Positions 516 through 14,325 of a DNA stretch of 14,325 nucleotides are shown in pieces. The stretch comes from Deferribacterales bacterium (lineage in GTDB: Bacteria; Chrysiogenota; Deferribacteres; Deferribacterales; Geovibrionaceae), in contig JBFWJG010000053.1 in assembly GCA_050253335.1 (NCBI GenBank), forward strand, positions 1 through 14,325, written 5' to 3'. The number at the start of each line of letters is the position of its first letter. Positions within the stretch are counted from its first letter, which is position 1. Below the pieces are notes generated by a model. The model was not told where the DNA came from, made no database searches, and saw nothing but the letters and a program-made list of their open reading frames with translations. The position numbers and the translations under genes were made by a program.

Positions 516-544
516 TTGCCGTCATCCTGTTACGGTAGTATAAT
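516..544 (+). promoter_or_regulatory. Sigma70-type promoter for the receiver-luxP-sensor operon
   Basis: TTGCCG (516-521), 17 bp spacer, perfect TATAAT (539-544); 65 bp upstream of ATG 610. Confidence 0.65.
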
Positions 545-609: not shown

Positions 610-969
610 ATGAAAGATATATCTGTACTGATTGTTGAGGATGAACCGGCTGTGGCGGGGGCTCTTGAACTCAGGCTGAAGCGTACTTTCGGCAGGGTTT
701 TCAGCGCGTCCGATGGACGAAAGGGTCTGGAAACCGCAATTGCGGTGAAGCCCGATGTCATAGTTACTGATCTGCGAATGCCCCATATGGAGGGGCTGGA
801 GATGATAGAGGAGATCCGAAAATCTCTTCCTTATGTCCATGTGATAGTTCTCACCGCATCCAGCGACAGGTTTGACCGAAAAAAAGCCGAAGAGCTCGGT
901 GTAGAGGGGTATTTCACCAAACCCCTCATGGTGAATGAGCTTATCACTAAAATTCAGGAGCTGGTTTAG
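610..969 (+). CDS. Single-domain response regulator (REC, CheY-like)
   Basis: LIVEDE acidic pocket, PDVIVTDLRMP phospho-Asp, VLTA Thr, FTKP Lys-Pro; no output domain; GGAAGGA RBS upstream. Confidence 0.93.
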   Translation: MKDISVLIVEDEPAVAGALELRLKRTFGRVFSASDGRKGLETAIAVKPDVIVTDLRMPHMEGLEMIEEIRKSLPYVHVIVLTASSDRFDRKKAEELGVEGYFTKPLMVNELITKIQELV

Positions 970-970
970 T

Positions 971-2077
971 ATGAAAAGGGCGCAAGCGCTCTTTTTTGCC
1001 GTTATCCTCAGCGCATTTTCAGCGTTCGGCGCGCAGAAGGATTTCTTCACTGTTTCGGAATATATGCTCATGCACCCCGAACAGGCGTGGAAGTTTGACA
1101 GCTTCGTAAATATTGTCCGCAGTGCCCCTGTGCCTCTGAAAACAACAAACGCAAAACCGGCTAAAATAGCCGTTGTGTATCCCGCGGTTCAGGCGTCCGA
1201 TTACTGGCGGCGCAGTGTTAAGGTGCTGGAAAAGAGGCTTGCGGAACTTAATGTGAACTATACCCTGACAACCTATTTCAGCAGGCCGTCCGGAGATTCG
1301 AGGCTGCAGATGGCGCAGCTTGCGGAGGCCGCGGCGGGCGGAGCTGACTTTATCATAGTTTCGGCAGATTCATCACAGATGCGGAAGGCTGTCGGAAGGC
1401 TGCTTTTTGAGGGGAAACACGAAATTATCATACAGAACCTCACCACCCCGCTCAGAGAGTGGGAGCCTTCCCGTCCGCTTCTGTACACAGGGTTTGACCA
1501 TATAGCGGGCTCCGCCATGCTGGCGGACGCAGTTGCGGACACTGTTCCTCAGAACTCATCCTACGCTGTTCTCAACTGTTCCGGCGGAGAGGTGGGCTAT
1601 CTCAGAACCAAGGGCTTCACAGACCGCCTTGCCTCAAGGGGCAGATATGTCAGGAAGGCAGAATATATTACAGACTTTGACAGGGAAAAATCAAAGATAG
1701 CAGCAAAAGAGATTCTGAGGGTTCACCCTGACGTTTCCTTTATTTTCGCCTGCGCCACTGATGTGGCTCTCGGGGCGGCAGATGCCCTGCGGGAGGCCGG
1801 CGCGCAGAAGATAATCCTCAACGGATGGGGAGGCGGAAACGCTGAACTGGAGCTTATAAAACAAAAAGAGCTTGACCTTACTGTCATGCGTATGAATGAT
1901 GAAAGCAGTGTTGCTGCCGCGGAGGCTGTGAAGTTTGTTCTCTCCGGAAGGGCGAATGATGTGCCCGTTGTTTTCTCAGGGGATTTCAGCCTTGTTACCT
2001 CCGCCGACAGCGCAGACGAGATAAAAATGCTCAAAAAAAGGGCTTTCAGGTATTCGGGTGAAAATGAGCAGGATTAG
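971..2077 (+). CDS. luxP: Autoinducer-2 binding periplasmic protein, LuxP family
   Basis: Signal peptide MKRAQALFFAVILSAFSAFG from ATG 971. LuxP-specific motifs VVYPAVQASDYW, QNLTTPLREW, GFDH, ACATDVALGA, NGWGGG, TVMRMND, SGDF and LKKRAFRYS match Vibrio LuxP as recalled. Confidence 0.88.
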   Translation: MKRAQALFFAVILSAFSAFGAQKDFFTVSEYMLMHPEQAWKFDSFVNIVRSAPVPLKTTNAKPAKIAVVYPAVQASDYWRRSVKVLEKRLAELNVNYTLTTYFSRPSGDSRLQMAQLAEAAAGGADFIIVSADSSQMRKAVGRLLFEGKHEIIIQNLTTPLREWEPSRPLLYTGFDHIAGSAMLADAVADTVPQNSSYAVLNCSGGEVGYLRTKGFTDRLASRGRYVRKAEYITDFDREKSKIAAKEILRVHPDVSFIFACATDVALGAADALREAGAQKIILNGWGGGNAELELIKQKELDLTVMRMNDESSVAAAEAVKFVLSGRANDVPVVFSGDFSLVTSADSADEIKMLKKRAFRYSGENEQD

Positions 2078-5000
2078 ATCTGTTAAAATATCCTCATTTC
2101 TGGCCATGCTTCTGGCGGGTTTTTCCGTCATTCTCTCTGTGGTTATTTTCATCTGGAGCAGTCTGGATGCCGGAAATCTCATAAAGCGCGAACAGACAAG
2201 GCTTCTGGAGAGGAACCACCACACAGCGTCCATGATTTTTGAAAAGGAACTGGAACAGCTGAACTGGGTCACAAGAGACCTGCGGGTAAGCCTCAGGCAG
2301 CTTCTTGTGAAAACCGCCGATCCTTCTTCGGATGAGTTCAAAAGCGGCTTTGAATCAATATACGATCTGAGCGTGGGTGAAAACGCCGATTTGATGATTT
2401 TTGTTTCTTACGACGAAAACAATGTCATTGACGCAGGCTCTCCCCTCTTTGATACATCAGGAATAATCAGTTTTCTTAAAAACAGCGGGCAGAGCGTCAC
2501 GGCCTCCGGCTCTGTGTACTCTGTTGAGACAGCGGGCGGAGCTGCCCCGCTTGCGGTCATTCTCGGCTATACGCAGGTGAACCACCCCGCAACGGGCGAG
2601 GTTCTGGGCAGGGTCTACACAGGCAGAATAATTAACGGCGCGCCGGATCTCATCAGGAAAACAGCGGCAGAAGCGGGCTCCGGCATAGCTTTCGTAGCGG
2701 GGGGAAGGGTTATCTCCTCCTCGGACAGGTTCAGCATGAGCGATTTTCTTCCTGAGGCCTGTGAAAGAGCCGGAGAAGCCTTGAAAGTCAGGGCAAGCTT
2801 CACTGCCTACTGCAGTCCTCTGGAGCTGAAAGGTTCTGCCATGCCTCTCATGATTTACCAGCTTACGGATAATCAGTCTCTGACACTCATGAAAAAGCAG
2901 ATAACAGCGAGAGCCGCCGCCGCGGTTATCCTTATTATAATCATGACAGCAATCTCTGTTTACTGGTTCCACCGGATTACAGCACGGTCTCTCATGTATC
3001 TTATCGACTATACCCACAGCATAAGCGCCTCCGGCAGCATTGACGGCTTCAGCCCCACCCCTGTTTATGAGTTCAACCGTCTGGGCGAGGCTGTTTCCGC
3101 AATGAACAGGGAACTGCGTGAAACACAGGCATATCTGGGCAATTTTCTGAGTTTCGCTAAAGTTCCGCTTATCGCGTGGGACACGGAAAACAGGATAGTT
3201 ATTTTCAACAAATCCATGGAAGAGCTCTCAGGAATTGAGGAGGCGCAGGCGGTCGGCCATAATCTCGAGATTATATTCTCATGCCTCACCGGAGACAGGC
3301 TCAAGGAGCTTCTGCTGAAGGCGGCCGGAAACGCGGACACCCTTTCCAACTTTGAATCCATGGTGAAGAATGTCAAAACAGGCGAAATGAAATATATCCT
3401 CTGGAATCTCTCCATGGCGGGAACAGGCGAAAAAAGCTTCGGGGTTGTTCTTCAGGGGATTGACATCACTGACAGGAAATCCTCGGAGGAGAAGCTTCTG
3501 CTTGCTTCCAAGGTTTTTGAAAATACCATAGAAGCCATTTATATAACCAACACAAGAGGGATTATCCTGAGTGTCAACAAGGCCTTCCTCCGGATTACAG
3601 GCTTCAGCGAGGAAGAGGCCATAGGCAATAAAACCAGCATTCTCCGTTCCGGCAGGCACGCAAATCACTTTTACAAGGGTCTGTGGAATTCCCTGAAGGA
3701 AACAGGCACATGGCAGGGTGAGATATGGAACAGGCGCAAAAACGGAGAGCTTTATCCGGCGCTTCTGAATATATCCAGCATAAGAGACTCAAACGGAAAT
3801 ATCTCCCATTTCATAGGCGTGATGCACGACATAACCGAAAGGAAAAAATACGAGGAACAGATCAAGTATCAGTCCCATTATGATCCGCTAACGAATCTGC
3901 CTAACCGCTATCTCTTTCAGGACAGGCTGAGCATGGCTATTTCCAGAGCGCGGAAAAACCATAATTATGTCGGGCTGATCTCCATCGATATAGACAGATT
4001 CAAAAACGTCAACGACACACTGGGGCATAATGTCGGGGATATACTGCTTCAGAAAATAGCCGACAGGATAGTGGGCACAGTGGGTGACAGCATCACGGTG
4101 AGCAGGCTTGGCGGGGATGAGTACACAGTCATAATTGAAGACCTTTCTGACAAGAACAGGGCAGTGACGGTGGCGTACAATGTCATTAAACAGCTTGAGA
4201 AGCCTTTTCAGGTGGATGATTACGAGCTTTTCCTTAAATGCAGCGCAGGGCTGAGCTTTTATCCGGATGACGGAGAAGATGTTTTCACCGTGGCCAAAAA
4301 CGCCGATGCCGCAATGTACCGTGCGAAGGCGAAGGGGCGCGGAATGCTCCAGATTTACACCACAGACTTTAACGACACCGCAAAAGACAGGCTCATTGTA
4401 GAAACCAAGCTTAACCGCGCGCTGGATAACGGCGAGTTTGAAGTTTACTATCAGCCTAAGATAAATCTCAAAACCCTTCAGATGACCGGGATGGAGGCGC
4501 TGATCCGCTGGAACAACCCCGATCTCGGCAGGGTTTTCCCTGATATGTTCATTCCCATCGCGGAGGAAACAGGGCTCATTGTTCCCATCGGTCACTGGGT
4601 TTTAAAGAGATCCTGCGAGGATCTCATGAGATGGCGCTCCAAGGGCTACGACCTCAAGGTGGCGGTGAACCTTTCCCTCAAGCAGTTTATCCAGAAGGAT
4701 CTCTACATGTCCGTGCGGAACGTTCTGCAGGAAACCGGAGTGAATCCTGAGCACCTTGAACTTGAGATTACCGAAAGCACAATCATGGTGGATACTGAAA
4801 ATACCCGGGATATTCTGGATAAGCTCAGCTCACTGGGAATATCTTTCGCTATCGATGACTTCGGCACAGGGTTCAGTTCCATTGGTTATCTGACAAGAAT
4901 ACCCATAGATACCATAAAGATAGACAAAACTTTCACTCAAGGGATAGACAGCAGTGAGGACTCGCTTTCCATAGTTCGCTCGGTTATTCAGCTTTCCAGA

Positions 5001-5192
5001 AACCTGAACATCGAGGTTGTTGCCGAAGGGGTGGAGAATGAGGTTCATCTTAGACTGCTCCGTGAGATGGAGTGTGATCTGGCGCAGGGTTATTATTTCA
5101 GCAGGCCTGTTCCGGCGGGAGAGTTCGAAAAGCTTCTTGAAGGCTGGAGTGAAAACTTTTCCCTTGAGATCAACAGCTTAAAAAAGGCTTAG
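2058..5192 (+). CDS. Membrane sensor: TM, LuxQ-like periplasmic domain, TM, HAMP, PAS, PAS/PAC, GGDEF, EAL (diguanylate cyclase/phosphodiesterase)
   Basis: Two TM segments; PATGEVLG (2586-2609) and TDNQSL recall LuxQ; PAS motifs ending DITDRK and DITERK; HYDPLTNLPNR, DIDRFKNVNDTLGHNVGD, GGDEY (4110-4124); EAL (4494-4502), ELEITES, DDFGTGFSS (4854-4880), IKIDK, AEGVE, QGYYFSRP. Start may be GTG 2058 or ATG 2064; overlaps the luxP stop. Confidence 0.93.
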   Translation: MKMSRIRSVKISSFLAMLLAGFSVILSVVIFIWSSLDAGNLIKREQTRLLERNHHTASMIFEKELEQLNWVTRDLRVSLRQLLVKTADPSSDEFKSGFESIYDLSVGENADLMIFVSYDENNVIDAGSPLFDTSGIISFLKNSGQSVTASGSVYSVETAGGAAPLAVILGYTQVNHPATGEVLGRVYTGRIINGAPDLIRKTAAEAGSGIAFVAGGRVISSSDRFSMSDFLPEACERAGEALKVRASFTAYCSPLELKGSAMPLMIYQLTDNQSLTLMKKQITARAAAAVILIIIMTAISVYWFHRITARSLMYLIDYTHSISASGSIDGFSPTPVYEFNRLGEAVSAMNRELRETQAYLGNFLSFAKVPLIAWDTENRIVIFNKSMEELSGIEEAQAVGHNLEIIFSCLTGDRLKELLLKAAGNADTLSNFESMVKNVKTGEMKYILWNLSMAGTGEKSFGVVLQGIDITDRKSSEEKLLLASKVFENTIEAIYITNTRGIILSVNKAFLRITGFSEEEAIGNKTSILRSGRHANHFYKGLWNSLKETGTWQGEIWNRRKNGELYPALLNISSIRDSNGNISHFIGVMHDITERKKYEEQIKYQSHYDPLTNLPNRYLFQDRLSMAISRARKNHNYVGLISIDIDRFKNVNDTLGHNVGDILLQKIADRIVGTVGDSITVSRLGGDEYTVIIEDLSDKNRAVTVAYNVIKQLEKPFQVDDYELFLKCSAGLSFYPDDGEDVFTVAKNADAAMYRAKAKGRGMLQIYTTDFNDTAKDRLIVETKLNRALDNGEFEVYYQPKINLKTLQMTGMEALIRWNNPDLGRVFPDMFIPIAEETGLIVPIGHWVLKRSCEDLMRWRSKGYDLKVAVNLSLKQFIQKDLYMSVRNVLQETGVNPEHLELEITESTIMVDTENTRDILDKLSSLGISFAIDDFGTGFSSIGYLTRIPIDTIKIDKTFTQGIDSSEDSLSIVRSVIQLSRNLNIEVVAEGVENEVHLRLLREMECDLAQGYYFSRPVPAGEFEKLLEGWSENFSLEINSLKKA

Positions 5193-6019
5193 AGCTTTGA
5201 TGGGCCGGCCATGCCGAACCCTTGAGTGGTTCTGATGCCTATGCCTGATTCCACAAGAAGGGAAAGATCCTCCGGATGACCGCTGAGCTGAAATGTTCCT
5301 GTTATTCCGGTGAGCATCATGAGAGATTTTCCCGTTTTTTCCCTGAATTTGTCCAGTGTGTGCTTGATTACGGTCTTGCGCAGCTTAACAGGCCTGAACA
5401 CTATGGGCTCCAGCGGGTATTTTCCCGTCATGCCGAAAATGCGCATGGAGGAGATTTCCGCAAGCCTGTCCGAGTATTCCTTTTCGGAAACCTCCAGTTC
5501 ACAGTATCCGTCCTCCACGGGGGGGATGATAGGCTTCTTCGAGTTCTGAGCTTCAAGAAGGACAGGCGAGTGCGTATGAAGGGTGACTTCCGGAGCTTCA
5601 ATGGCAAAAGGCCTGTTGAGAAGCTTTGAGTTCTCAAGCATATAAGTAAGCTTTTTGCCTCCCACCAGAATCTGCCCGTTTCGGGAAAAATCTATATCCT
5701 TCTTTCTCTCAAACCCTTCCTGCACTGCAAGAAGAAATTTCTCATACGGACTTGAAATGTATAATGTGACAAACTTGTTCTCGGGGATATAAAAAACAGT
5801 ATCGTGAACTTCAAAGCTGTTGTCGAAGACGATGGCTTCTTTCCTGAATTTGTCTCTGGAGAAGGCGAGATTGAACGTGAAGAATTTGAAGCTTTTATCA
5901 GTAAGCCCCATATTCAGTGATTCATAGCCGCTTTCAGCGGCTGATTTGATGATTTCGGCTATTCTGTTTCTGAAAATGACCGGTACTTCTGTTGCGGTAA
6001 GAGTAAGTTTCAAAAGCAT
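5189..6019 (-). CDS. cas6: CRISPR-associated endoribonuclease Cas6 (orphan; type I-B/III-like)
   Basis: C-terminal G-rich loop GIGIRTTQGFGM, plus KFFTF, ISSP, HSPVLL and GTFQLSG..EDL RAMP/Cas6 motifs; AGGAG RBS 9 nt before the ATG. Confidence 0.87.
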   Translation of the reverse strand: MLLKLTLTATEVPVIFRNRIAEIIKSAAESGYESLNMGLTDKSFKFFTFNLAFSRDKFRKEAIVFDNSFEVHDTVFYIPENKFVTLYISSPYEKFLLAVQEGFERKKDIDFSRNGQILVGGKKLTYMLENSKLLNRPFAIEAPEVTLHTHSPVLLEAQNSKKPIIPPVEDGYCELEVSEKEYSDRLAEISSMRIFGMTGKYPLEPIVFRPVKLRKTVIKHTLDKFREKTGKSLMMLTGITGTFQLSGHPEDLSLLVESGIGIRTTQGFGMAGPSKL

Positions 6020-6502
6020 CGTGGAAGTCTCCTGTCAAAAGAAAATTCACATTTAAGTATGTATCCTCTTTGATATTAACATAAAGATAATGAAAGAACA
6101 ATCTCAACAAAGTCTTATATAACAAATAATATTGACTGAATTAATGAAATGGCAATATAAAAAATGAATACACGTGAAAAAAGACAGCGGGAAAATGATT
6201 ATTAGATTCATGAATGTGCTTTCTTATAAATATGATAATGCTTATTGACATTATTTAGGCAAGTTAGCCTGTTAATCAAGACCGCCCCAACCGCCTGTCA
6301 GCGTACCTTAACATATGTACACGCTGCGTTTGTCATCAGTCTTTTATAAATTATGAATTGTGAAAATTTATGACTGCAGGTTTTGTGAATAAATATATCC
6401 CTAAGAATGTTTCAGCATTTTTTCAAAATCTTCGCAGGAAGGTGTCCTGAGCCGGATTCTGTAAAAATATAAAATTGCTGTTAAACAAATTTAAGCGGCA
6501 GG

Positions 6503-6531
6503 TTTACGCCGGACTTATTTGGTGATATAAA
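6503..6531 (+). promoter_or_regulatory. Putative sigma70 promoter directly before the exonuclease ATG (possibly leaderless)
   Basis: TTTACG (6503-6508), 17 bp, TATAAA (6526-6531) with TGn extension; ATG 6 nt later; no good SD. Confidence 0.45.
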
Positions 6532-6537
6532 GAAAGA

Positions 6538-7182
6538 ATGGATGAAGCACTTACAATATCTACACAAAACAGACTGAGTAAAGAATATGTAGCTTCTTTG
6601 GAAGCAGTCAGATTTGACGGAGAAATCATTACTGTTACGGAACCTGAACATGCCGAAGAGGTTTGCAGGGAGCTCAGCGGAACCGGCGAACTGGGTTTTG
6701 ATACGGAAAGCAGGCCTTCCTTCAGGAGAGGGGAAAGCTACCCTGTTTCCCTTGTTCAGCTTTCAACCCTTGAGAAGGCTTATCTTTTTCAGCTTAACGG
6801 CGGAAGTCTGCCCGAAGGTCTGGTTAGGATTTTCTCGGATTCTTCAATAAAAAAAATCGGCGTAGGCATAAGGGACGATATAAAAAAGCTGAAAGAGCTT
6901 GCCCCTTTTGAAGAAAAGGGATTTATCGACCTTGGCGATATAGCTGCCGAAAAAGGGATAATCCAGTTCGGCGCCCGTGCTCTGGCTGCCAGATATCTTG
7001 GGCGTAAAATTGTCAAATCCGCGCAGAAAACTAACTGGGCCCGCAGAGACCTCACTGAAAAGCAGAAAAATTATGCCGCGACGGACGCGTGGGTCTGCCT
7101 GACGATTTACCCTCTTCTGCTGAATGATCCCAACGACTACAGGGAATGTCCGGCGGAGGCTCCGGAAGAGGCAGATGGATAA
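6538..7182 (+). CDS. 3'-5' exonuclease, DEDDy (RNase D / WRN-exonuclease-like)
   Basis: ExoI GFDTES, SLVQLST, ExoII KIGVGIRDD, FIDL, ExoIII TNW...LTEKQKNYAATDAW. Confidence 0.9.
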   Translation: MDEALTISTQNRLSKEYVASLEAVRFDGEIITVTEPEHAEEVCRELSGTGELGFDTESRPSFRRGESYPVSLVQLSTLEKAYLFQLNGGSLPEGLVRIFSDSSIKKIGVGIRDDIKKLKELAPFEEKGFIDLGDIAAEKGIIQFGARALAARYLGRKIVKSAQKTNWARRDLTEKQKNYAATDAWVCLTIYPLLLNDPNDYRECPAEAPEEADG

Positions 7183-11387: not shown

Positions 11388-12344
11388 ATGAAAAAATTTC
11401 TGATGATTCTTCTCACAGCGGCTTTTATCCCGCTGAATGCGCAGGCTCTGGATGCGCCTTTTATCGTGGGCGGAAATACTGCCTCGCAGGGCGAATATCC
11501 TTTTATGGTTGCGGTTGCTCAGGCGGGCGGAACTCCGCTTACCTCAAGGCAGTTCTGCGGAGGGGTGCTTATCGCCCCCGAATGGGTTCTGACAGCGGCT
11601 CACTGCGTCGCAACCGAGGCGGGGGGAGTTGTGACCGTTGATGACCCGTCATCGATCACCCTTTACATAGGCGAATTTGACCTTGCGAACCCAAGCGGAA
11701 CGGAAAGGTCGGTATCCGCAATTCATGTTCATCAGAGCTATATCGATAATTCCGCCTTTGGCAACGGATACCGTGATATTGCCCTGCTTGAGCTTTCGTC
11801 TCCGGTCGGTGCGGAGTACGCATCTGTTCTGAGGCCTGCTGACGCCTTTTATTACGCCCTGCCGGGAGATTCTGTCAGGGTCATAGGCTGGGGAAGCACT
11901 GACGGTAATATTTATACTTATCCCGACAGGCTTCAGGAAGTTACGTTGCCTGTGGTTTCCAACTCCGTATGCGCTGCCGCAATGACGCCCAGCAATGTTT
12001 ATGATTATGAAATCTGCGCTGGCTATCAGGCCGGCGGAAAAGACTCATGCGCAGGAGACAGCGGAGGGCCGATGCTTGTTTCGAAGAACGGAGGCTGGGT
12101 TGTTGCAGGTATAGTGAGCTGGGGCCCTGTTGAGTGCGGAGTGGCGGGTGCATACGGCGTTTATGCCCGTGTAGCCGACAACCTTGACTGGATAGAAAGC
12201 CGCACAGGCGAGCTTGACTACGGAAATACTGCTTCCGGCGGAGGCGGCGGAGGATGCTCGGCTTCTGAAAACGGCAATATATCATTGCTGCTTATGTCTG
12301 CCGCACTTGCAGTTTTTATAATAAGAGGCAGAAGAAAAGCTTAG
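11388..12344 (+). CDS. Secreted trypsin-like serine protease (S1A) with C-terminal Gly-rich/Cys membrane sorting tail
   Basis: Signal peptide ending AQA; IVGG mature N-terminus; CGG, TAAHC, DIALL, GKDSCAGDSGGP, VSWG, YGVY; tail GGGGGGCSA-TM-RGRRKA; GGAG RBS. Confidence 0.95.
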   Translation: MKKFLMILLTAAFIPLNAQALDAPFIVGGNTASQGEYPFMVAVAQAGGTPLTSRQFCGGVLIAPEWVLTAAHCVATEAGGVVTVDDPSSITLYIGEFDLANPSGTERSVSAIHVHQSYIDNSAFGNGYRDIALLELSSPVGAEYASVLRPADAFYYALPGDSVRVIGWGSTDGNIYTYPDRLQEVTLPVVSNSVCAAAMTPSNVYDYEICAGYQAGGKDSCAGDSGGPMLVSKNGGWVVAGIVSWGPVECGVAGAYGVYARVADNLDWIESRTGELDYGNTASGGGGGGCSASENGNISLLLMSAALAVFIIRGRRKA

Positions 12345-12547: not shown

Positions 12548-14325
12548 CTATACCTTTCTTCTCATTAATATTATCCCTGAAACCAGCATCAGAATAATCA
12601 GGGCGTAGTCTGCTTCCGCTCCCGCGGAACATCCGCCTCCGCCTGAACCTCCGGAAGAGCTTCCGCTTTCATTGTCGTCACCATCGTCCGTCTCGTTGTC
12701 TTCTCCGCCGTCTGTCTGGTTGTCGTCCGTATTGTTGTCATCCGTATCGTTGTCATCCCCGCCCTGAGCGGCAAGGGTCACAAAGAACGACTGGAATTCG
12801 GGGCTGAGCTGATTTCCAGCCTGATCCCTGATTCCGTCTGTAACATTAACCGTGTAGGCGGTGCCGGAGCTTAAATCCGCTGAGGGGTTGAAGGTCACGT
12901 TGTTGCCGGAAACGCTCAGATCGCCTTCTGTCACTGGGGTCATGGTTGACTGATTTACAAGGGATAGGTGCGCTGAGCTGAGTGTGGAAGAGAGTATGCT
13001 TTCGCTGAACTGAACACTTATATTTGTAGTGACTGCCACATCCGCCGAGTTATTGGAAGGGGAGACACTGACAACATAAGGCGCTGTTGTGTCCAGAGTT
13101 ATGCTGTCCGATGCCGCGGCGCTTATATTGCCTGATCCGTCTTTGAGCCAAGCGTATACGGTTTTTGTTCCGTCAGCCCCTGTGAGGGAGAAGGTGAGGT
13201 TGAGATTTAAGCTTACTGTACCGGAAACAGGGCTGAAGTCGGCTGCATCGGGCGTTGTTCCGCTTTCTGATACGTAGTAGCCGTCTATCCCCGTTCCGTC
13301 TGAACCGCTGAGACTTACTGTCACACTGCGGCTGTTTGTGAATACACTGCCGTTGTTTATGTTTACTGTCACATTGTATGGAACTGTCGTGTCAACGCTG
13401 TCTGCAATGCTGTTTATAACCGAGTCAACGTTTATGCGCCCCTCTGTTCCGTGGGGTGTGCAGCCGTAGGTTACGGCAGAGCGTGTGTTCTTCATGACAG
13501 TTTCAAGCTGATCCACCGTGAGAGTATTGTTCTTCTCTCTGAAAACTGCGAATGCACCTGCCACATGGGGTGTCGCCATGGATGTTCCGTTCCATGCCGC
13601 ATAGTCCGTGTCTCCGCTGCCGACCGCTGAGTTTATCGTCACCCCGGGCGCGAATATGTCCACAAGGTTTATCTGATAGTTGCTGAAGCTCGCTTCAACA
13701 TCAAGAACGGTCACGGCTCCCACTGCGACAGCCTTTTCTATGCAAGCCGGAGATGAAATGTAGCCGCAGTAGCTTTCATTTCCGGTGGCAATGGCGACTG
13801 CTATTCCCGCTCCGGTGAGAACATTGATGTAGTTGGTGTATGTGAGGTCGTCATTATCGCAGTATCCGCTCTCCTGACCGCCGCCAAGGCTCATGTTTAT
13901 TGCGGCTATGCTGTGGGTGTTTTTCAGTGTGTCATAGATATAGTCAAGGGCGGCCATCTGGTCAGAGGTGTAGGACAGAACACAGTCGTCATACAAGGGG
14001 AGGGTTCCGCCGCAGAGGGAATTGTTTTCGAATCTGGAAAACACCTGAATCGCTATAATGTCTGCGTCCTTCGCGACCCCTTTCTGGACTGCGCTGTTTC
14101 CCGCGGCGATTCCCGCCACATGGGTTCCATGGTCGTATGCTTTATATGATGATTCATAGTGCGCGGCAGATCCCGTCCCGATCATCTCACTGCTTCCGTC
14201 AGGGCAGTCGTTATTAGAGAAGCAGGCTTCGGTTATATTTTTCCCCGCGAACATTTCGTGGGTGCGTCTTATGCCTGTATCAATAACGGCGACATACCAG
14301 CCGTCTCCGGTGTATCCTGCCGCCC
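12548..14325 (-). CDS. Subtilisin-like serine protease (S8), 5'-truncated, with Ig-like domains, acidic stalk and Gly-rich/Cys sorting tail
   Basis: The frame stays open beyond ATG 14254 to the window edge (AAGYTGDGWYVAVIDTGIRRTHE, containing the catalytic Asp). HGTHVAGIAAG, INMSLGG, ATGN and GTSMATPHVAG complete the triad and oxyanion Asn. DTTAPYVVSVSP...FSE...YTV.V..GIRD.AGN is an Ig-like (Big_5-type) domain; tail GGGGCSA-TM-RRKV. Confidence 0.93.
   Translation of the reverse strand, partial: AAGYTGDGWYVAVIDTGIRRTHEMFAGKNITEACFSNNDCPDGSSEMIGTGSAAHYESSYKAYDHGTHVAGIAAGNSAVQKGVAKDADIIAIQVFSRFENNSLCGGTLPLYDDCVLSYTSDQMAALDYIYDTLKNTHSIAAINMSLGGGQESGYCDNDDLTYTNYINVLTGAGIAVAIATGNESYCGYISSPACIEKAVAVGAVTVLDVEASFSNYQINLVDIFAPGVTINSAVGSGDTDYAAWNGTSMATPHVAGAFAVFREKNNTLTVDQLETVMKNTRSAVTYGCTPHGTEGRINVDSVINSIADSVDTTVPYNVTVNINNGSVFTNSRSVTVSLSGSDGTGIDGYYVSESGTTPDAADFSPVSGTVSLNLNLTFSLTGADGTKTVYAWLKDGSGNISAAASDSITLDTTAPYVVSVSPSNNSADVAVTTNISVQFSESILSSTLSSAHLSLVNQSTMTPVTEGDLSVSGNNVTFNPSADLSSGTAYTVNVTDGIRDQAGNQLSPEFQSFFVTLAAQGGDDNDTDDNNTDDNQTDGGEDNETDDGDDNESGSSSGGSGGGGCSAGAEADYALIILMLVSGIILMRRKV
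12713..12757 (-). repeat. Imperfect 15-bp tandem repeat x3 encoding DDNxT
   Basis: Plus strand TGTCTGGTTGTCGTC / CGTATTGTTGTCATC / CGTATCGTTGTCATC encodes DDNDT-DDNNT-DDNQT on the minus strand. Confidence 0.8.

Follow-up and report, generated by a model that had tools for sequence, protein, structure and literature searches.

A luxP gene overlapping the gene of a GGDEF-EAL sensor

The window analyzed here is the 14,325-nucleotide contig C53 from the genome of a Deferribacterales bacterium (assembly of 2.58 Mb, 99.94% complete). It carries a luxP gene that overlaps the gene of a membrane sensor with a LuxQ-like input half and a PAS-GGDEF-EAL output half. We consider it fairly likely that the two proteins form a LuxP-gated enzyme of cyclic di-GMP (c-di-GMP) metabolism, which eavesdrops on autoinducer-2 (AI-2) and works without a phosphorelay. 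An earlier note on this DNA had described a luxP homolog overlapping a two-transmembrane (two-TM) GGDEF-EAL sensor that has no histidine kinase, and the open reading frames (ORFs), TM segments and Pfam matches bear this description out.

The luxP gene (971..2077, + strand) encodes 368 residues beginning with a typical signal peptide, and its ATG at 971 is preceded by AGGAG 11 nt upstream. The sensor gene, on the same strand, encodes 1044 residues and ends at 5192. It starts at GTG 2058 or ATG 2064, which gives an overlap with luxP of 20 or 14 nt, respectively; relatives favor the ATG. The closest named homologs of LuxP and the sensor are from Geovibrio thiophilus (76–77% identity) and Limisalsivibrio acetivorans (43–49%), which marks the host as a Geovibrio-like member of the phylum Deferribacterota.

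LuxP and its predicted ligand site

The best matches of LuxP in a phmmer search of the whole PDB are the structures of Vibrio harveyi LuxP (1JX6, 1ZHH, 2HJ9 and 4YP9), with an E-value of 1.8e-89 over residues 27–363. The next family is the ribose-binding protein, at 1.4e-10. Pfam assigns the protein to Peripla_BP_4 (3.6e-22), a type I periplasmic binding fold. The N-terminus resembles an export signal, and the overlapping downstream gene encodes a LuxQ-like periplasmic domain. Sequence comparison thus identifies window 971–2077 as a full-length LuxP ortholog.

The predicted ligand site, mapped with a HMMER alignment, is formed by Q74, S76, W79, N156, R212, T263, W286 and R307. All eight residues are identical to those of V. 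harveyi LuxP, where they are numbered Q77, S79, W82, N159, R215, T266, W289 and R310, and all eight are invariant in the 11/11 LuxP copies of the phylum Deferribacterota, which are 38–77% identical to that of the window. We take Q77, S79, W82, T266 and W289 to be contacts of S-THMF-borate; their residue types fit the numbering. N159, R215 and R310 are described as AI-2 contacts in LuxP (PMC6452917), and R215 and R310 also in a second report (PMC3794749).

Three LuxP proteins "in the proteobacteria and deferribacterota" have been reported to bind AI-2 (PMC12268683). One of them, Denitrovibrio acetiphilus LuxP (WP_013012133.1), gave a 47–55-fold induction of an AI-2 reporter with material from LuxS+ producers and a ~1-fold induction with that from LuxS- producers (PMC12268683, Fig. 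2c sheet). The LuxP of a record titled Denitrovibrio sp. (L065) belongs to the same clade as the window protein and is 43% identical to it, a value that refers to the L065 protein and not to the assayed one. We infer from the conserved site that AI-2 is the probable ligand of the window LuxP.

The input half of the sensor resembles LuxQ

The input half of the sensor is composed of a first TM segment, TM1 (2088–2156, residues ~11–33), a periplasmic domain (2160..2906, residues 35–283), a second TM segment, TM2 (2910–2972, residues ~285–305), and a cytoplasmic linker followed by the domain PAS1 (2973..3500, residues 306–481). TM1 and TM2 were assigned as hydrophobic segments. The periplasmic domain is of the LuxQ-type double-PAS, dCache-like kind according to Pfam, AlphaFold2 (AF2) and Foldseek, and the linker and PAS1 are co-linear with LuxQ.

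The Pfam family LuxQ-periplasm matches sensor residues 40–276 over model positions 3–237 of 239, and scores 27.7 bits in a six-frame search of the genome. It is the only Pfam sensor family found in the periplasmic domain. The NCBIfam model LuxQ_Vibrio (NF041947) extends the match across the membrane, aligning sensor residues 11–481 with positions 5–459 of 843 (1e-30). It is also the sole match of residues 1–345 among 18,950 NCBIfam models, with 72 bits. The hidden Markov model check suggested in the earlier note therefore places the periplasmic domain with LuxQ. In the whole genome, the window sensor is the sole LuxQ-periplasm match and the sole gene covering LuxQ model positions 5–460, the other 63 matches covering kinase or receiver parts; no second LuxQ-like sensor was found there.

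Pairwise and profile comparisons agree with this assignment. BLASTP aligns the sensor with V. harveyi LuxQ (L044:5089-7668) at 5e-20, with 23% identity over 405 residues, and the alignment is co-linear (sensor 97–477 with LuxQ 83–469). A nine-sequence sensor profile matches LuxQ in hhalign with 99.0% probability over 433 columns; the sensor of one relative, whose periplasmic domain is interrupted by an in-frame TAA (L009:1471-2919), was excluded from the sensor and periplasm alignments. The N-terminal 481 residues find only V. cholerae LuxQ in the PDB by phmmer, at an E-value of 5.6e-4 that is weak on its own, and a word-index homolog search with residues 1–480 returned 8 close relatives only and did not reach Vibrio LuxQ.

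The AF2 model of the periplasmic domain has a predicted local distance difference test (pLDDT) score of 83.2 and a predicted TM-score (pTM) of 0.75. Its top six PDB matches in Foldseek are all LuxQ periplasmic domains (3C38, 3C30, 1ZHH_B, 2HJE, and 2HJ9 chains C and D), with target-normalized TM-scores of 0.68–0.74 and a root-mean-square deviation (rmsd) of ~4 Å. Generic dCache domains rank lower, with TM-scores of ~0.5 and rmsd of ~6 Å. The earlier note had named a better fit to a generic Cache or CHASE family as grounds for doubt; no such fit was seen, since all six LuxQ structures outrank dCache. A generic dCache or CHASE identity of the domain was rejected on this ranking and because no such Pfam match was found.

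The motif likenesses listed in the earlier note hold in part. The stretch PATGEVLG is identical in both proteins, the LuxQ version having been given there as PSTGEVLG, and TDNQSL aligns with QDNQSV, but DAGSPLF has no exact counterpart. The proposed continuation of the likeness past the membrane stands as far as the co-linear alignment, which runs through PAS1 to residue ~477–481, and the first-PAS pattern YTHS..F..EF..G..EL..F..FA..P..W aligns with YTRS..F..EF..G..EL..F..FA..P..W of LuxQ. The proposed HAMP domain was not detected in the sensor (Pfam, E<=0.01), while some relatives show sub-threshold HAMP matches, and PAS1 taken alone scores best as a generic PAS domain in NCBIfam.

The output half of the sensor is PAS-GGDEF-EAL

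The output half contains a second PAS domain, PAS2 (3513..3845, residues 486–596; Pfam PAS/PAS_9), a GGDEF domain (3873..4340, residues 606–761; Pfam 1.3e-43) with the signature GGDEY, and an EAL domain (4407..5108, residues 784–1017; Pfam 1.7e-75), all on the + strand. No HisKA, HATPase_c or REC domain was found in the sensor by Pfam at E<=0.01. Because the kinase domains are missing and the total LuxQ_Vibrio score is 106 bits against a cut-off of 1200, the sequence marks the sensor as LuxQ-like in its input half only, and not as a LuxQ.

The output half aligns with the phosphodiesterase family DibA (NCBIfam NF045675), sensor residues 468–1023 matching positions 65–621 of 623 with 657.7 bits, below the equivalog cut-off of 980. 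The likeness to LuxQ stops at residue ~477–481 and that to DibA begins at 468, so the two likenesses meet between PAS1 and PAS2. This agrees with the view of the earlier note that a LuxQ input module has been joined to a PAS-GGDEF-EAL output.

The GGDEY signature is conserved in the relatives P0002–P0010 and is that of the Geovibrio/Limisalsivibrio clade; of the other relatives, four carry GGDEF and one carries SGDEF. The RxxD inhibition site is absent, its position reading GDSI. The domain contains the stretch DIDRFKNVNDTLGHNVGD, which we take to be the GGDEF substrate-binding site. The EAL motifs EALIR, NLS, EITES, DDFGTG, KIDK, EGVE and QGYYF are intact, and they are kept in 14/14 relatives, except for ESLIR in place of EALIR in P0004. 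Phosphodiesterase activity of the EAL domain is predicted from these motifs.

Pairing of LuxP with the sensor

The N-terminal 341 residues of the sensor were detected in 10/68 Deferribacterota genomes, including that of the window. By genus, with this genome left out, they occur in 3/3 genomes of g1, 4/4 of g2, 1/1 of g3, 0/7 of g4 and 1/1 of g21. A luxP gene is present in 11/68 genomes, among them all those with the sensor (10/10), and it lies within the 1.5-kb flank at 9/10 sensor loci. At the tenth locus (genome G023; L008:2601-3983), an ORF of a DDE transposase separates luxP from the sensor gene, and both genes are open. The identities of LuxP and the sensor to those of the window drop together across genomes (75/70, 73/69, 70/66, 49/35 and ~43/25%).

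Downstream of the eleventh luxP, which belongs to genome G009 of another Deferribacterota family and encodes a protein of 38% identity, lies an overlapping gene for a 791-residue hybrid kinase, the best NCBIfam match of which is LuxQ_Vibrio with 391 bits. Kinase and GGDEF-EAL outputs therefore both occur in the phylum. The luxP-kinase pair of G009 (L025, G009:C62, 1350–13274) lies among genes for a protoglobin kinase, a REC-HD-GYP protein, a REC-GGDEF protein and a PAS hybrid kinase with an Hpt domain. The locus looks like an AI-2 phosphorelay, which may also end in c-di-GMP.

The complex of mature LuxP with sensor residues 33–282, whose prediction the earlier note had proposed as a check, passes its controls: the score is 0.69, and the best of three controls reaches 0.03. 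A score of 0.69 is reached by 116/157 solved complexes and by 2/215 mismatched pairs, counts that hold only roughly, because our own alignments were fed to the complex model. Different runs share at least 91% of their contacts, and the pLDDT of the partners is 84 or higher. The predicted LuxP interface on the sensor is formed by residues 97–128 and 192–221, counted from ATG 2064, and the face used on LuxP by model residues 108–147 and 163–167. The model indicates likeness to the solved LuxP-LuxQ periplasmic complex, not binding by this particular copy. LuxP probably binds the sensor physically.

The Pfam scan detected no ABC permease or ATPase gene in the window. An ABC-transporter role for LuxP was considered and rejected, the window being without transporter genes.

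Source of the signal

The LuxS family (PF02664) was not found in the genome of the window, the result of a check for luxS suggested earlier, nor in any of the 68 genomes of the phylum (0/68), 53 of which are at least 90% complete; control genomes gave the expected result. Any AI-2 sensed must therefore come from other species, which would make its perception a case of eavesdropping. G. thiophilus and D. acetiphilus are listed with LuxP and without LuxS in the genome table of PMC12268683. S-adenosylhomocysteine hydrolase (AdoHcyase, PF05221) was likewise not found in the genome of the window, where Pfs and alternative routes were not searched for. The S-adenosylhomocysteine (SAH) metabolism of the bacterium thus seems unusual.

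Occurrence of the architecture in other bacteria

The earlier note had described the sensor as the product of a graft. It is not a one-off: the same architecture occurs at 15 of the best 80 luxP loci and represents a widespread family. These loci come from a scan with the LuxP alignment, one genome per species, in which at least 599 stretches matched, at least 396 were confirmed and the best 80 were retained. Three of the 80 rows duplicate genomes of the phylum scan. The shares of partner types among the 80 are not a census, because these loci are the ones most like the window LuxP.

A GGDEF-EAL protein is encoded directly downstream of luxP in Neptuniibacter (seven loci), Oceanospirillum (two), Oleiphilus, Psychromonas (two), Roseibium and Deferribacterales (two). 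LuxQ-periplasm exceeds the Pfam cut-off in 9/9 of the GGDEF-EAL partners scanned, out of the 15, with 29.5–67.2 bits. A kinase is encoded downstream of luxP at 60 of the best 80 loci, identified by the BLAST probe at 59 and by Pfam at one, and the partner is missing or broken at three. One locus each has luxP followed by a LuxQ-periplasm chemoreceptor (L028:5104-7068, a metagenome-assembled genome (MAG) of Candidatus Vecturithrix) and by a LuxQ-periplasm-PAS-SpoIIE phosphatase (L029:5099-7333, a Desulfobulbaceae MAG). The chemoreceptor and SpoIIE proteins are candidates for two further uncharacterized types of LuxP output.

The sensor alignment was also used as a profile against 1.84 billion representative sequences, giving 22,813 matches that were swamped by multi-PAS proteins. 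The N-terminal domain is covered by 31 of the best 150 representative matches. The outputs of these 31 proteins, as assigned by Pfam, are GGDEF-EAL in 6, kinases in 17, chemoreceptors in 2, a SpoIIE phosphatase in 1 and none in 5, which are mostly short. One of the GGDEF-EAL clusters includes a 789-residue protein of Chrysiogenes arsenatis. Two metagenomic proteins, a 910-residue LuxQ-periplasm-PAS-GGDEF-EAL protein (P0067) and a 345-residue LuxP homolog (P0225), are each encoded on a 4972-base Logan contig and may be another adjacent pair.

A quick IQ-TREE phylogeny of 91 LuxP rows, with support from the SH-like approximate likelihood ratio test (SH-aLRT) only, has three main clades. Two distinct ones are of the GGDEF-EAL type, one from Deferribacterota (13 rows, support 95) and one from Gammaproteobacteria (13 rows, support 100), and the third is a kinase clade of Vibrionaceae (57 rows, support 100). 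The labels of ten Deferribacterota rows, two disrupted copies included, were set from the sensor and flank scans. The GGDEF-EAL label requires three changes on the tree, of which the starred branches force only one. One origin or several origins of the GGDEF-EAL partner are possible.

Proposed mechanism and alternative explanations

In the proposed mechanism, LuxP would be the periplasmic receptor for borated AI-2, and the two-TM sensor, a dimer, would offer it a docking site on its LuxQ-type periplasmic domain. As in LuxPQ, ligand-driven closure of LuxP may alter the symmetry of the periplasmic dimer. The change would be relayed through TM2, the LuxQ-like linker, PAS1 and PAS2 to the GGDEF-EAL module, with no histidine kinase or phosphorelay in the signal path. 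There it could shift the balance between c-di-GMP hydrolysis by the intact EAL domain and, possibly, synthesis or GTP sensing by the GGDEY domain, which may represent a second catalytic state or a GTP-sensing regulator. The AI-2 would be supplied by other species, and the eavesdropping would be linked to the control of biofilm and motility. AI-2 is the probable controller of c-di-GMP in this system; the sequence does not reveal in which direction c-di-GMP would change.

Several observations weigh against this interpretation. The window LuxP shares only ~42–48% of its residues with LuxP of V. harveyi, and 43% with that of the Denitrovibrio sp. record. The periplasmic domain of the sensor is ~15–16% identical to that of Vibrio LuxQ, and its LuxQ-periplasm score in hmmscan, 23.5 bits, is just below the cut-off of 25.7. 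The cyclase activity of the GGDEF domain is uncertain, because its signature reads GGDEY. The score of the predicted complex may reflect memory of a structure, because LuxP with the LuxQ periplasmic domain has already been solved (1ZHH, 2HJ9). The pair is under non-uniform constraint, since the sensor of one relative has an in-frame stop and that of another is separated from luxP by an insertion sequence (IS). A receiver gene at the same locus is left unaccounted for, and the pair is known from sequence and predicted models alone. Finally, the lack of self-made AI-2 in the phylum leaves room for another natural ligand.

The LuxP clade could accordingly sense another small diol, furanose or borate ester, and the pair could then report on nutrients or the environment to the c-di-GMP network. 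This would fit the absence of luxS from all 68 genomes, by which route no AI-2 is made, the missing AdoHcyase with its hint of unusual SAH metabolism, and the identity of only 42–48% to any assayed LuxP, few non-Vibrio homologs having been assayed. We nevertheless regard a different ligand as unlikely, since the eight AI-2-contact positions are invariant in 11/11 copies. Lack of luxS is shared with Pseudomonas aeruginosa. AI-2 sensing without this gene is known from its PctA and TlpQ (PMC7584622), and the reporter assay showed retention of AI-2 by another LuxP of this family (PMC12268683).

It is also conceivable that LuxP serves uptake or another partner, while the sensor responds alone through its Cache-like or cytoplasmic PAS domains and the adjacency of the genes is historical. 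The lack of ABC permease and ATPase genes in the window, the overlap of the two genes, their 10/10 co-occurrence, their jointly falling identities and the complex score of 0.69 against 0.03 for controls make such a separation improbable, and according to the papers on LuxPQ structures, the Vibrio LuxQ periplasmic domain reportedly binds LuxP and not a ligand. In favor of separate roles are the two cytoplasmic PAS domains, which could take other inputs, the IS that splits the genes of one genome while both remain open, and the wording "for transport into the cell" in PMC12268683. We give the least credence to a sensor that is enzymatically dead or a LapD-type c-di-GMP-binding scaffold controlling no turnover. 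The departure of GGDEY from the canonical GG(D/E)EF and a weak LapD-like NCBIfam match (140 bits against a cut-off of 1020) would agree with it. However, the exchange of Phe for Tyr is conservative, the EAL motifs are intact and, with ESLIR in P0004 as the one exception, kept among the 14 relatives, and the best NCBIfam matches are the active phosphodiesterases DibA (657.7 bits) and PRK10060 (445 bits).

Relation to known signaling systems

LuxP of Vibrio sits on the periplasmic domain of LuxQ with or without ligand, and AI-2 drives the asymmetric assembly of (LuxPQ)2, displaces the TM helices and flips the state of the enzyme (PMC8050422). The window pair shares with the LuxP-LuxQ systems of V. 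harveyi and V. cholerae (1JX6, 1ZHH, 2HJ9, 3C38) an ortholog-level LuxP with an identical ligand site, the order of luxP followed by an overlapping sensor gene, and a sensor co-linear with LuxQ 32–469, which includes TM1, the double-PAS periplasmic domain, TM2, the linker and the first PAS. It differs from them after residue ~480, where PAS-GGDEF-EAL takes the place of HisKA, HATPase_c and the receiver. The host is a luxS-less member of the Deferribacterota, and the predicted output is c-di-GMP instead of the LuxU/LuxO phosphorelay.

GGDEF-EAL enzymes gated by binding proteins are known from NspS-MbaA of V. cholerae, which responds to polyamines, and ScrB-ScrC of V. parahaemolyticus, which responds to the S-signal (PMC8050422); ScrABC thus also answers a secreted signal (PMC8050422). 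These systems share the logic of a solute-binding protein gene beside that of a two-TM dCache-like GGDEF-EAL enzyme. They and the window pair constitute a functional class and not a family of homologs, as the binding proteins belong to SBP_bac_8 and SBP_bac_3 there and to Peripla_BP_4/LuxP here, and the ligands differ. The DibA-like phosphodiesterases align end to end with the PAS-GGDEF-EAL part of the sensor but have no LuxQ-like membrane input.

AI-2 has been reported to alter c-di-GMP through the dCache diguanylate cyclase rpHK1S-Z16 of Rhodopseudomonas palustris, the GAPES1 cyclase YeaJ, and AsrK-AsrR of V. furnissii (PMC7584622, PMC12268683, PMC11796354). These proteins bind AI-2 directly through dCache_1 or GAPES1 domains, or form a two-component pair, and non-borated AI-2 is preferred. 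In the window system, by contrast, the ligand would be borated AI-2, and it would be bound by a protein of its own, LuxP, which passes the signal on through a domain of the LuxQ type.

The literature contains traces of the combination described here. A 2016 census of Cache domains has a table entry, given without comment, for one c-di-GMP-type protein among 115 LuxQ-periplasm proteins (PMC4822843). LuxP was recorded in 2025 in Deferribacterota, Chrysiogenota, Desulfobacterota, Campylobacterota and Bdellovibrionota, where it is treated as sensor-only or as a transport protein; the AI-2 retention by Denitrovibrio LuxP published in the same report is given there with no partner named (PMC12268683). 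A 2020 statement has LuxP as "present only in Vibrio spp.", acting through the kinase LuxQ (PMC7584622), and a review of binding proteins pairs LuxP only with that kinase (PMC8050422). The belief of the earlier note that no LuxP-dependent c-di-GMP enzyme has been characterized is matched by a full-text literature search, which found none and whose reach did not include subscription journals. The parts and the logic of the system are known, and the combination of LuxP with GGDEF-EAL is uncharacterized but common.

With this locus and those related to it, LuxP would have a second and direct way of acting on c-di-GMP signaling. More broadly, LuxP-type perception may be a modular receptor system and not a specialty of Vibrio kinases. 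Its LuxQ-like input would serve at least four kinds of output, namely kinases, GGDEF-EAL enzymes, chemoreceptors and SpoIIE phosphatases. The version with GGDEF-EAL would then be an uncharacterized class that spans Deferribacterota, Oceanospirillales-type Gammaproteobacteria, Psychromonas and Roseibium and turns borated AI-2 directly into a change of c-di-GMP. We give this broader view about an even chance of being right. The GGDEF-EAL-type luxP hosts belong to three phyla and include bacteria that are unable to make AI-2. If the interpretation is true, it would explain the AI-2 responses of some luxS-less bacteria, which would adjust biofilm and motility to signals overheard from their neighbors. 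To the two known GGDEF-EAL systems gated by binding proteins, it would also add a third, whose ligand is known and can be purchased. Cultured hosts of the system include Geovibrio thiophilus, Oceanospirillum beijerinckii DSM 7166 and Neptuniibacter strains.

Neighboring genes and other features of the window

Three + strand genes are packed head to tail in the window: a stand-alone receiver, luxP and the sensor gene. The receiver (610..969, 119 residues; Pfam Response_reg 5.8e-26) has its stop 1 nt ahead of the luxP start. Its position directly 5' of luxP is kept in the same-genus loci L003–L005 (87–89% identity) and in L006 (47%) and not in the other loci, so that its conservation is restricted to Geovibrio and Limisalsivibrio-like genomes. 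In one Limisalsivibrio-like genome, a gene for a cytoplasmic PAS histidine kinase (L024:8134-9405) lies ahead of the receiver.

A promoter-like site upstream of the receiver gene, TTGCCG-17-TATAAT (516..544, + strand), matches 10 of 12 consensus positions and is a possible start of the transcription unit. It was found by a consensus scan only, which is weak evidence: the scan gave 18 sites of this kind, and shuffled sequences lead one to expect 8.2. A terminator-like hairpin is located 5' of it, at 494–508. Metatranscriptome contigs from four runs of one study are ~95–96% identical to the locus. Those covering 560–1844 and 599–1129 bridge the receiver and luxP, and that covering 1911–2425 bridges luxP and the sensor gene. 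They hint only weakly at expression of the three-gene unit in a close relative, because the contigs prove no single transcript and DNA can occur in RNA libraries; stretches of the locus that no contig covers carry no information.

Convergent with the sensor gene and overlapping its stop by 4 nt is a gene for a Cas6 endoribonuclease (5189–6019, - strand). The position of the Cas6 gene is conserved in another genome of the genus (L023:1883-2713). The window holds no further cas gene that was noticed, and Tandem Repeats Finder detected no CRISPR array in it. The region 5500–7000 is low in G+C (0.38–0.39). Farther downstream, a trypsin-like protease (11388–12344, + strand) and a subtilase with a Big_5 domain (12548–14254, - strand) each have a C-terminal match to the JDVT-CTERM sorting signal in NCBIfam, at 26.6 bits, just below the cut-off of 27, and at 21.5 bits, also below it, respectively. 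The occurrence of JDVT-CTERM on both proteases suggests a shared surface-anchoring system.

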